Assembly: GCF_003334335.1 (NCBI RefSeq)
Contig: NZ_QOWQ01000074.1
DNA length: 6,951 nt
Origin: Escherichia coli
Lineage (GTDB): Bacteria; Pseudomonadota; Gammaproteobacteria; Enterobacterales; Enterobacteriaceae
Strand: one strand, 5' to 3'
Shown one piece after another: positions 3,571 through 3,905 of the stretch. Both the position numbers and the translations under genes were made by a program. The notes below the pieces were generated by a model. The model saw nothing but the letters and a program-made list of their open reading frames with translations, searched no databases and had not been told where the DNA came from. Positions within the stretch are counted from its first letter, which is position 1; each line of letters begins with the position of its first letter.

Positions 3571-3575
3571 GTGAT

Positions 3576-3643
3576 ACCTGCCGTCAGGTGTTCGTGCACC
3601 GGGCCATAACTTGCAGTCGGGAGTTGAACTCCTGACGGCAGGT
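3576..3643 (+). repeat. 13-bp inverted repeat (ACCTGCCGTCAGG / CCTGACGGCAGGT) forming a long stem-loop 6 nt after the tnpC stop
   Basis: 3576-3588 is the exact reverse complement of 3631-3643. A further 4-5 bp can pair inside the 42-nt loop (GTTC at 3590-3593 with GAAC at 3626-3629). It is not followed by a T-tract. Confidence 0.45.
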
Positions 3644-3697
3644 TATGAGCCAGACCAGCAACCACGCGGGCTGACAGCGAATAAGAACCTGAATCAG

Positions 3698-3788
3698 CCC
3701 GGAGTCATTCCCGGGTCAGTACATCATCACCTGCTATTAATCCCCGAGTCAGTACTTCGCGGCCTGACGCGATCACCCTACTCAGTAC
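3698..3788 (+). repeat. Array of direct repeats in the IS66 3' non-coding region: TCAGTAC three times at exactly 33-bp spacing (3716, 3749, 3782), plus an IR-like CCCGGAGTCAT copy at 3698-3708
   Basis: Read directly: CCGGGTCAGTAC 3711-3722, CCCCGAGTCAGTACTTC 3742-3758, CCCTACTCAGTACTTC 3776-3791. The motif resembles the core of the left inverted repeat (GGGGAAGTCATCTTCAC) and lies in the same orientation as it. Confidence 0.45.
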
Positions 3789-3905
3789 TTCAGAGCCCGC
3801 CTCCGGTACCTGCCTGGCGATCGCCCCTGTGCAACAAAATAAATCAACCGTTATCAAACCACGATCGTTCGTATGCGCCGCCGATGACGCGCGCCTGAAA
3901 AACGC

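Follow-up and report, generated by a model that had tools for sequence, protein, structure and literature searches.

The insertion sequences of the IS66 family are large and widespread, and they are common in enterobacterial pathogenicity islands and on virulence and resistance plasmids; to our knowledge, the mechanism by which their three proteins bring about transposition is essentially unknown. The copy analyzed here, from Escherichia coli, raises the question of what purpose is served by 335 bp of DNA lying between the end of its last gene, tnpC, and its right inverted repeat. Throughout, the window is the whole stretch of 6,951 nucleotides that was analyzed, which is laid out as follows.

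114-1088: C-terminal part of an autotransporter gene
1172-1179 and 3933-3940: perfect 8-bp target duplication, GCATTAAC, a direct repeat flanking the IS66 element
1180-3932, + strand: IS66-family element, ISEc49-like, 2753 bp, delimited by sequence, the inverted-repeat pair, and ends matched by pattern
1180-1206, + strand: left inverted repeat, GTGTCGTTACGGGGAAGTCATCTTCAC
1969-3570, + strand: tnpC, intact, 533 amino acids, stop codon at 3568-3570
3571-3905, + strand: non-coding tail from the tnpC stop to the right inverted repeat, 335 bp
3906-3932, - strand: right inverted repeat, reverse complement GTAAGCTTCCGGGGAACTCATATTGAC
3964-4251: small open reading frame (ORF) downstream of the IS66 element
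about 4255-6850: IS21-family element with a frameshifted istA

The element is a member of the IS66 family, as its TnpC carries the IS66 DDE domain and it has terminal repeats and an 8-bp duplication. The terminal repeats are 27 bp long and imperfect (18 of 27 positions match), and the duplication is found on both sides. Because the inverted repeats and the duplication delimit the element, the 335-bp tail sits inside the mobile unit; the gap that the first-pass annotation had reported is confirmed from the sequence, and measured to the tip of the element it amounts to 362 bp. TnpC is 98% identical to protein P0001, which is named "IS66-like element ISEc49 family transposase" and has precomputed Pfam matches to PF13007, PF13005, PF03050, and PF13817. 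The tnpA gene of the window is interrupted by a stop at codon 6, and a deletion has removed 13 bp from its tnpB; the matching genome locus (L001) carries annotations for both genes. The left repeat begins with GTGT, as against the usual GTAA, and is also present in loci L015, L028, L033, L035, and L039.

The tail contains an array of repeated units of about 27 bp with the consensus ACCCnnnTCAGTACTTCnnnnCCTGAC, always on the tnpC strand. Each unit is composed of ACCC, three free bases, the 10-nt core TCAGTACTTC, four free bases, and CCTGAC. Units were scored with a matrix of 27 columns and 21 units, and true units score 25-40 bits. The array and the other features of the tail are listed below.

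3709-3735, + strand: unit 1, core TCAGTACATC at 3716-3725, 32.2 bits
3742-3768, + strand: unit 2, core TCAGTACTTC at 3749-3758, CCTGAC at 3763-3768, 36.2 bits
3775-3801, + strand: unit 3, core TCAGTACTTC at 3782-3791, 35.4 bits
3584-3685, + strand: weaker in-phase positions (TCAG at 3584, TCGG at 3617, CCAG at 3650, TAAG at 3682)
3616-3636, + strand: block A, a weak unit and local palindrome, GTCGGG-N9-CCTGAC
3576-3588 and 3631-3643: arms of a long-range inverted repeat, 13 bp, perfect, with a 42-nt loop
3698-3702 and 3711-3715: short palindrome CCCGG/CCGGG, kept in E. coli copies and not in Serratia or other tail types
3802-3905, + strand: distal segment, limited to the tail type of ISEc49, L015, and L017
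3886-3891 and 3903-3908: palindrome GACGCG/CGCGTC, of which the last arm overlaps the first 3 nt of the right inverted repeat

With core starts at 3716, 3749, and 3782, the exact 33-bp spacing that had been noted for the TCAGTAC-containing repeats is more than coincidence: with at most one mismatch allowed, TCAGTACTTC occurs three times in the window versus 0.34 expected, a number reached in 2 of 200 shuffles, and the autocorrelation of the tail is highest at lag 33 (z = 5.1). The same register reaches back to 3584, with start-to-start spacings of 33, 33, 32, 34, 33, and 33 from there through 3782, and the window holds in total three strong units and four weaker in-phase positions. Among the latter, block A is the sole tnpC-proximal block kept in all ten compared elements (as GTCRGG-N9-CCTGAC), and it forms invariant columns at window positions 3613-3634 in alignment A3. 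Read in unit orientation, it reaches 7-13 bits in five of the nine elements scored, compared with a background 99.9th percentile of -1 to -6. Block C (AGTCAGnACCTG) also appears in that alignment, supporting the weaker in-phase positions.

The three palindromes described by the first-pass annotation all exist at 3576-3643, 3698-3715, and 3886-3908. Repeat-finding extends the first of these to 18-nt arms at 94%, and it is perfect in the window lineage only. Two half-sites lie within its arms, GTCAGG from a weak unit (3583-3588) and CCTGAC from block A, and the 13-bp inverted repeat is made up of half-sites of two adjoining units. A further suggestion, of a similarity between the repeat cores and the left inverted repeat, does not hold: in unit orientation, across nine elements, the matrix gives the left repeats -11 to -23 bits and the right repeats -6 to -16 bits, versus the range for true units given above, which rules out a likeness of the units to the terminal inverted repeats.

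How widely, and how faithfully, is the array kept? At the sensitivity of blastn, 2,810 of 5,426 complete E. coli genomes contain the tail, for the most part with 60-90% identity, and among them K-12 carries a remnant of it adjoining yjgZ. The ends of relatives, which were drawn from encoding contigs and a metagenome scan, were set by the inverted repeat together with an 8-bp duplication where the flanks matched (clear for L014, L017, L022, and L024), giving the following distances from tnpC stop to tip.

L014, L026, and L029, Salmonella type, TnpC 84%: 303 bp
L015, E. coli, TnpC 72%: 360 bp
L017, Serratia, TnpC 68%: 364 bp
L019, Enterobacter: 240 bp
L020, Klebsiella: 224 bp
L021 and L038, Cedecea type: 223 bp
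L024, Pantoea, TnpC 57%: 323 bp
L022, Yersinia: 60 bp
L023, Salmonella: 60 bp
L112, Cedecea, TnpC 50%: 30 bp

In distant metagenomic IS66 members whose GTAAGCGTC ends are clear, the tail measures 22-80 bp. The array is found in seven genera (Escherichia, Salmonella, Serratia, Enterobacter, Klebsiella, Cedecea, and Pantoea), with 26 units recovered from 10 elements of five tail types; these elements have one to four strong units each, and their TnpC proteins are 57%-98% identical to that of the window. The tail types are only 47-65% alike and near unalignable with one another, and the unit is common to all five. Its spacing in the relatives is 33 or 34 bp (34 bp in L014 and L024), with 35 bp in L017, and the last strong unit lies 84-88, 105, or 150 bp from the tip, depending on the element. 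The phasing is kept within this clade; the hairpins emphasized by the first-pass annotation are mostly lineage-specific.

Variation within the tail is unevenly distributed. Among eight related copies, 8% of columns are variable in ACCC, 28% at the CCTGAC position, and 33% in the 10-nt core, compared with 64% in the array spacers and 59% in the distal segment; in a similar set of copies, 68% of tnpC third codon positions are variable. Units 1, 2, and 3 each retain their own identity from copy to copy. Judged by these substitution patterns, the cores are under selection, and the spacers drift at about the synonymous rate.

The unit is also specific to its place. In 472 kb of fetched loci, all matrix matches above 15 bits lie downstream of tnpC, on the tnpC strand, and in this clade, with the exception of one 18-bit site in the near-identical Serratia loci L017 and L018, on the opposite strand about 455 bp past the right end. 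Left ends, short-tailed relatives, and distant IS66 members gave no unit in the matrix scan of these 472 kb, and in all 24 left ends recovered the stretch from the left repeat to tnpA is free of units. Weak minus-strand scores at about position 550, in tnpB, were considered as a left-end matching site and rejected as unrelated coding sequence. A search of 2.9 million viral contigs for two phased cores yielded five copies of ISEc49 and a single coding repeat that is unrelated. Plasmid locus L003 had suggested an insertion hot spot, GTGATACC, just after the tnpC stop; this was rejected, the two junctions being essentially absent from the 5,426 complete E. coli genomes.

In an average-linkage tree of TnpC identities, the array-bearing elements group together, and the array-less L022 and L023 fall outside. 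Given this grouping and the short tails elsewhere, the long tail looks derived in one enterobacterial clade rather than family-wide, and the distribution of the array is consistent with a single origin. Target duplications are still seen among sister elements with tails of 30-60 bp: L022 has a clean one and no array; the flanks of L023 do not match. The chemistry of the IS66 family can therefore proceed without the array, which is missing from the left end and from relatives that look functional. It would then be an accessory, not needed for the core reaction, that may serve right-end marking, control of synapsis, or regulation.

The first-pass annotation had offered two readings of the tail, an ordered array of transposase or host-factor sites and an element-encoded structured RNA. 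The first of these fits the data, and the second finds no support. Our preferred explanation, put forward tentatively and at somewhat less than even odds, is that the tail acts in cis as an array of helically phased putative protein-binding sites specific to the right end. What argues for such an array is the combination of conserved blocks of about 27 bp, fixed orientation, spacing of about three helical turns that does not follow codons, and neutral spacers. As 33-34 bp is approximately three turns of the helix, bound proteins would share one face of the DNA, and the 34- and 35-bp spacings fit a helical rather than a reading-frame constraint. We envisage that a sequence-specific protein, most plausibly encoded by the element, would coat the array, and that the coated array would mark or organize the right end during transposition or would regulate transposition; discrimination between ends, synapsis, and control of transposase access are possible roles.

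Candidates for the binding protein would be TnpA, through its predicted N-terminus, and the zinc-finger/leucine-zipper N-terminus of TnpC, and a host DNA-binding protein would be equally allowed. In the AlphaFold model of TnpA (mean pLDDT 77.5), the N-terminal 50 residues form a three-helix bundle (pLDDT 84-91), and the Foldseek matches, although weak (E >= 0.3), include many helix-turn-helix DNA-binding domains; on this model, TnpA could be a DNA binder. It is not discriminating as a candidate, because TnpA is present in array-less elements too. Because the unit is unlike the terminal repeats, the transposase, if it is the binder, would have to use another specificity here than at the tips.

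Phased subterminal repeats are a known kind of feature, and as far as we found none has been reported for IS66: a search of one full-text library returned no account of the IS66 tail, of subterminal repeats, or of mechanism, in agreement with the first-pass annotation, and we found no solved structure of any IS66 protein. Ends with multiple subterminal transposase-binding sites are known from Tn7 (the TnsB sites), phage Mu (L1-L3 and R1-R3), the Tn402/Tn5053 family, and the IS21 family, and an IS21-family end with such repeats lies in the window itself, at about 4255-4370. Like the IS66 array, these place several regularly spaced copies of the same motif, in a fixed orientation, within an end of a DDE element, and their two ends are asymmetric. 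Their inner sites, however, repeat the sequence of the tip, whereas the array unit is unrelated to the inverted repeats, and they have sites at both ends, whereas the array occupies the right end only and starts 84-150 bp from the tip. Lacking tip-sequence identity and presence at both ends, the array is not filed with ends of the Tn7, Mu, or IS21 type. We know of no dissection of the tail region in IS679, a family member that transposes experimentally.

Other repeats resemble the array in part. Plasmid iterons and partition repeats, direct repeats some 20 bp long to which a single protein binds cooperatively, share its conserved cores, free spacers, and spacing by whole helical turns; unlike them, the array sits between a transposase gene and a terminal repeat, without a replication or partition gene. 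Canonical IS66 right ends (those of IS66 and ISEc8-type elements, L022, L023, L112, and the metagenomic members) belong to elements with the same tnpA-tnpB-tnpC order, 27-bp repeats starting with GT(A/G)A, and an 8-bp duplication, but their stop-to-tip distance is 22-80 bp and contains no unit, whereas the ISEc49/ISSfl3-like clade adds 223-364 bp with the array. Rho-loading (rut) regions and REP palindromes have an excess of C over G on the transcript strand and short imperfect palindromes downstream of a gene, as the array does. Rut sites lack the motif-level conservation and the 33-bp phasing seen here, and REP elements differ in having stronger palindromes, alternating orientation, and a distribution not confined to one mobile element.

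The resemblance to rut regions bears on the first alternative, that the tail acts as RNA: it would be a 3' untranslated region of tnpC that, through Rho loading or small hairpins, ends or stabilizes the transcript before the right inverted repeat. Composition is in its favor. GC skew on the plus strand changes from +0.1 to +0.25 within tnpC to -0.20 to -0.31 at 3650-3900; the best 80-nt window in each of ten elements (ten of ten) has an excess of C over G of 21-26 percentage points and overlaps the array; and the transcript strand has the run of about 80 nt, rich in C and poor in G, that rut regions require. The C excess over the array in all ten elements, together with the confinement of the units to the tnpC strand, would also be accounted for by a transcript-level role. 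A scan of 3571-3932 found no promoter-like or intrinsic-terminator-like site, and inspection by eye of the AT-rich block at 3835-3860 for the IHF and sigma-70 promoter consensus gave no match, as did the scan; with no intrinsic terminator after tnpC, factor-dependent termination would be the sole option. Against this, the C excess of the array largely reflects the composition of the unit itself, conservation as a motif of 27 nt is not usual for rut sites, and nothing about an RNA would obviously call for a spacing held strictly at 33-34 nt.

The evidence from base pairing also weighs against an RNA. At E <= 1 on both strands, the tail has no match in Rfam 15. RNAalifold, applied to 12 related copies, selects two local hairpins rather than the 13-bp helix, and none of 19 pairs is compensatory, a count from few lineages with limited power; the stem-loops that the first-pass annotation took as a possible sign of structured RNA thus show no covariation. 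The 13-bp helix itself is paired at 82.5%, versus 82.4% in column shuffles; the commonest state of one of its pairs is a C.A mismatch, and its outer A-T pair occurs in the window only. With pairing equal to that of shuffles and no covariation, we reject it as a conserved RNA helix. A 5-bp stem within the unit, GTCAG/CTGAC, is complete in 8 of 26 units, and because losses in the 3' half-site are not matched by compensating changes in the 5' half, it is the sequence of the unit, not its pairing, that is conserved. The tail folds about 2 standard deviations better than shuffled sequence on either strand (z of -2.0 on the plus strand and -2.2 on the minus strand). One pair in block A, which is G.T in the window and L024 and A-T in L014 and L019, would be tolerable as G.U on the plus strand, in favor of a transcript; this strand signal is contradicted by the long helix, in which the plus-strand C.A is a wobble on the minus strand only. 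On balance, we regard a role as RNA as unlikely.

A second alternative holds that the tail is now functionless, a relic of tandem duplication of a 33-bp segment and of sibling right-end fragments left by nested insertions. In its favor, copy number varies (L004 and L030 are without one 33-bp unit), L003, L007/L015, and L032 have right ends that are nested or in tandem, and the tails are mosaic relative to TnpC. Sister elements do without the long tail, and the distal segment, 3802-3905, evolves almost neutrally. Duplication would explain the phase, but not why the cores are 8-33% variable when the spacers are 64% variable, nor does a relic account for the survival of the core in five otherwise unalignable tail types with TnpC identity down to 57%. 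The individual identities that units 1, 2, and 3 keep across copies likewise argue against it, and we consider a relic quite unlikely.

Coding potential was the third possibility, for which the following frames are relevant.

3611-3898, + strand: ORF of 95 amino acids
3705-3857 and 3279-3665, - strand: ORFs in one shared frame

The first-pass annotation had stated that the tail holds no credible ORF; open frames do exist mechanically on both strands, and none behaves as coding sequence. The most specific form of the idea is that the tail is a decayed or overprinted minus-strand gene that would be read from close to the right end back across tnpC in antisense and would encode 11-residue repeats (xGxEVLTRxxx). 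The 33-bp period does equal 11 codons, the minus strand has the excess of G over C typical of sense strands, and PGAP annotates short hypothetical proteins in the tail in some genomes. The frame is open for up to 263 amino acids in L015 and nearly open in L007, L009, and L003, and in the window it is broken by a single TGA (3705-3707), which is TGG in most compared relatives and TGA also in L011. However, a frame antisense to tnpC with shared wobble positions tends to stay open by chance, and the tnpC-antisense part of this frame does share its wobble positions with tnpC.

Six-frame checks were carried out in nine and then eight homologues, with tnpC as the positive control for codon phase. 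In the same copies, substitutions per codon phase number 41/53/42 in the tail, without the third-position excess of tnpC (45/42/80), and the proposed third position of the minus-strand frame is not enriched for variable sites. The frame is broken by the 34- and 35-bp spacings and by stops in at least five of the six most divergent elements (among L014, L017, L019, L020, L021, and L024), including L014, L017, and L024, which have intact tnp genes and target duplications. Neither the longest minus-strand ORF nor the plus-strand ORF has a Pfam or NCBIfam match. With no codon periodicity, a broken frame, and no family matches, we reject the tail as a protein-coding gene and find a decayed or overprinted one very improbable; the feature in the tail is real, conserved, and non-coding. 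About as improbable is a scheme in which transcription of tnpC continues through the array to give a series of small hairpins that share a conserved UACUUC loop, and TnpA or TnpB binds or processes this RNA, which, if true, would place IS66 transposition or transposase expression in this clade under element-encoded RNA-protein control, rather than under DNA sites alone.

If the array were only a Rho-loading region or a relic, its interest would be local. As a set of phased protein-binding sites, it would offer an explanation for the 220-360 extra base pairs that distinguish one enterobacterial clade. The unit matrix recognizes a tail from this clade even when it survives as an orphan remnant, as beside yjgZ in K-12, and thereby aids the annotation of decayed copies. 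The array would also provide a defined DNA substrate with which to probe binding by TnpA, TnpB, and the N-terminus of TnpC.

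The window's IS66-family copy has an intact tnpC and two damaged accessory genes (within 1267-1965). Codon 6 of tnpA (1282-1284) is changed from TGG to TGA, and tnpB carries a frameshift caused by a 13-bp deletion (GGATGAACTCCGG, missing after about 1665). All four of the more distant copies compared (loci L028, L033, L035, and L106) have both the TGG in tnpA and the 13 bp in tnpB; the near-identical genome copy (L001) keeps the tnpA TGG, yet shares the tnpB deletion. The window's copy is unable to make accessory proteins of its own. Upstream, a sigma-70-like candidate tnpA promoter was read by eye at 1202-1229 (TTCACA at 1202-1207, a 16-nt spacer, and TAGTAT at 1224-1229), apparently spanning the inner boundary of the left inverted repeat. 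The block TTCAGnCAGTTAGCATTACC, also read by eye, is conserved in most left ends.

At L111 2761-3383 (E. coli K-12 MG1655, NC_000913.3; also L006 2271-2793) lies yjgZ (b4277), whose product is annotated as an "uncharacterized protein" and matches the window's TnpC over its last 42 residues at 81% identity. The gene is followed by an unannotated remnant, approximately 290 bp long and truncated by IS4, of a window-type IS66 tail (the non-coding stretch between tnpC and the right inverted repeat), in which one repeat unit scores 17 bits against the unit matrix. K-12 yjgZ is the decayed 3' end of the tnpC gene of an IS66 element.

The IS21-family element neighboring the IS66 copy in the window has a frameshifted istA and terminal direct repeats like GATCnnnnTTTGGCAT, several per end (4255-4370; 6790-6850), as is usual for this family. 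At comparison locus L010, an IS66 tail is interrupted by a 29-bp piece of an IS21-family end. An AT-rich 33-nt tandem repeat in a viral contig (IMGVR_UViG_3300030107_005885; L109 1400-1650) is unrelated and contains TCAGTACTTC by chance; it appears to encode an 11-residue repeat, and no IS66 gene lies close to it.

Right ends of IS66 elements were found stacked on each other at L003 2956-3405 (plasmid CP098976.1), L007 3833-4010, L015 4376-4552 (E. coli), and L032 3782-3942. In L003, GTGATACC, the 8 bp directly 3' of a tnpC stop, is abutted by two different right ends, one per orientation; in L002, L007, and L015, a right end abuts CTCAGTTC within repeat unit 3 of another copy's tail. Complete E. 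coli genomes hardly ever contain these junctions, so the case for self-targeting of the tail amounts to no more than a hint. Several copies also lie within or directly beside other IS66-family copies (L019 1-1302, Enterobacter; L020 882-1199, Klebsiella; L113 4001-4611), either head to head or inserted in a sibling's tnpA or tnpC. These nested and abutting copies suggest that IS66 elements cluster or target one another.

Between the window and L014 (Salmonella type), TnpC is 84% shared and the tails are 57% alike, whereas the window and L017 (Serratia) share 67% of TnpC and have tails 75% similar. At loci L025 and L037, TnpC and tail are those of the window, but the left repeat and leader differ. 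By these comparisons (window, L014, L017, and L025), both the tails and the left ends form a mosaic with respect to TnpC, and recombination seems to be common between IS66 relatives.
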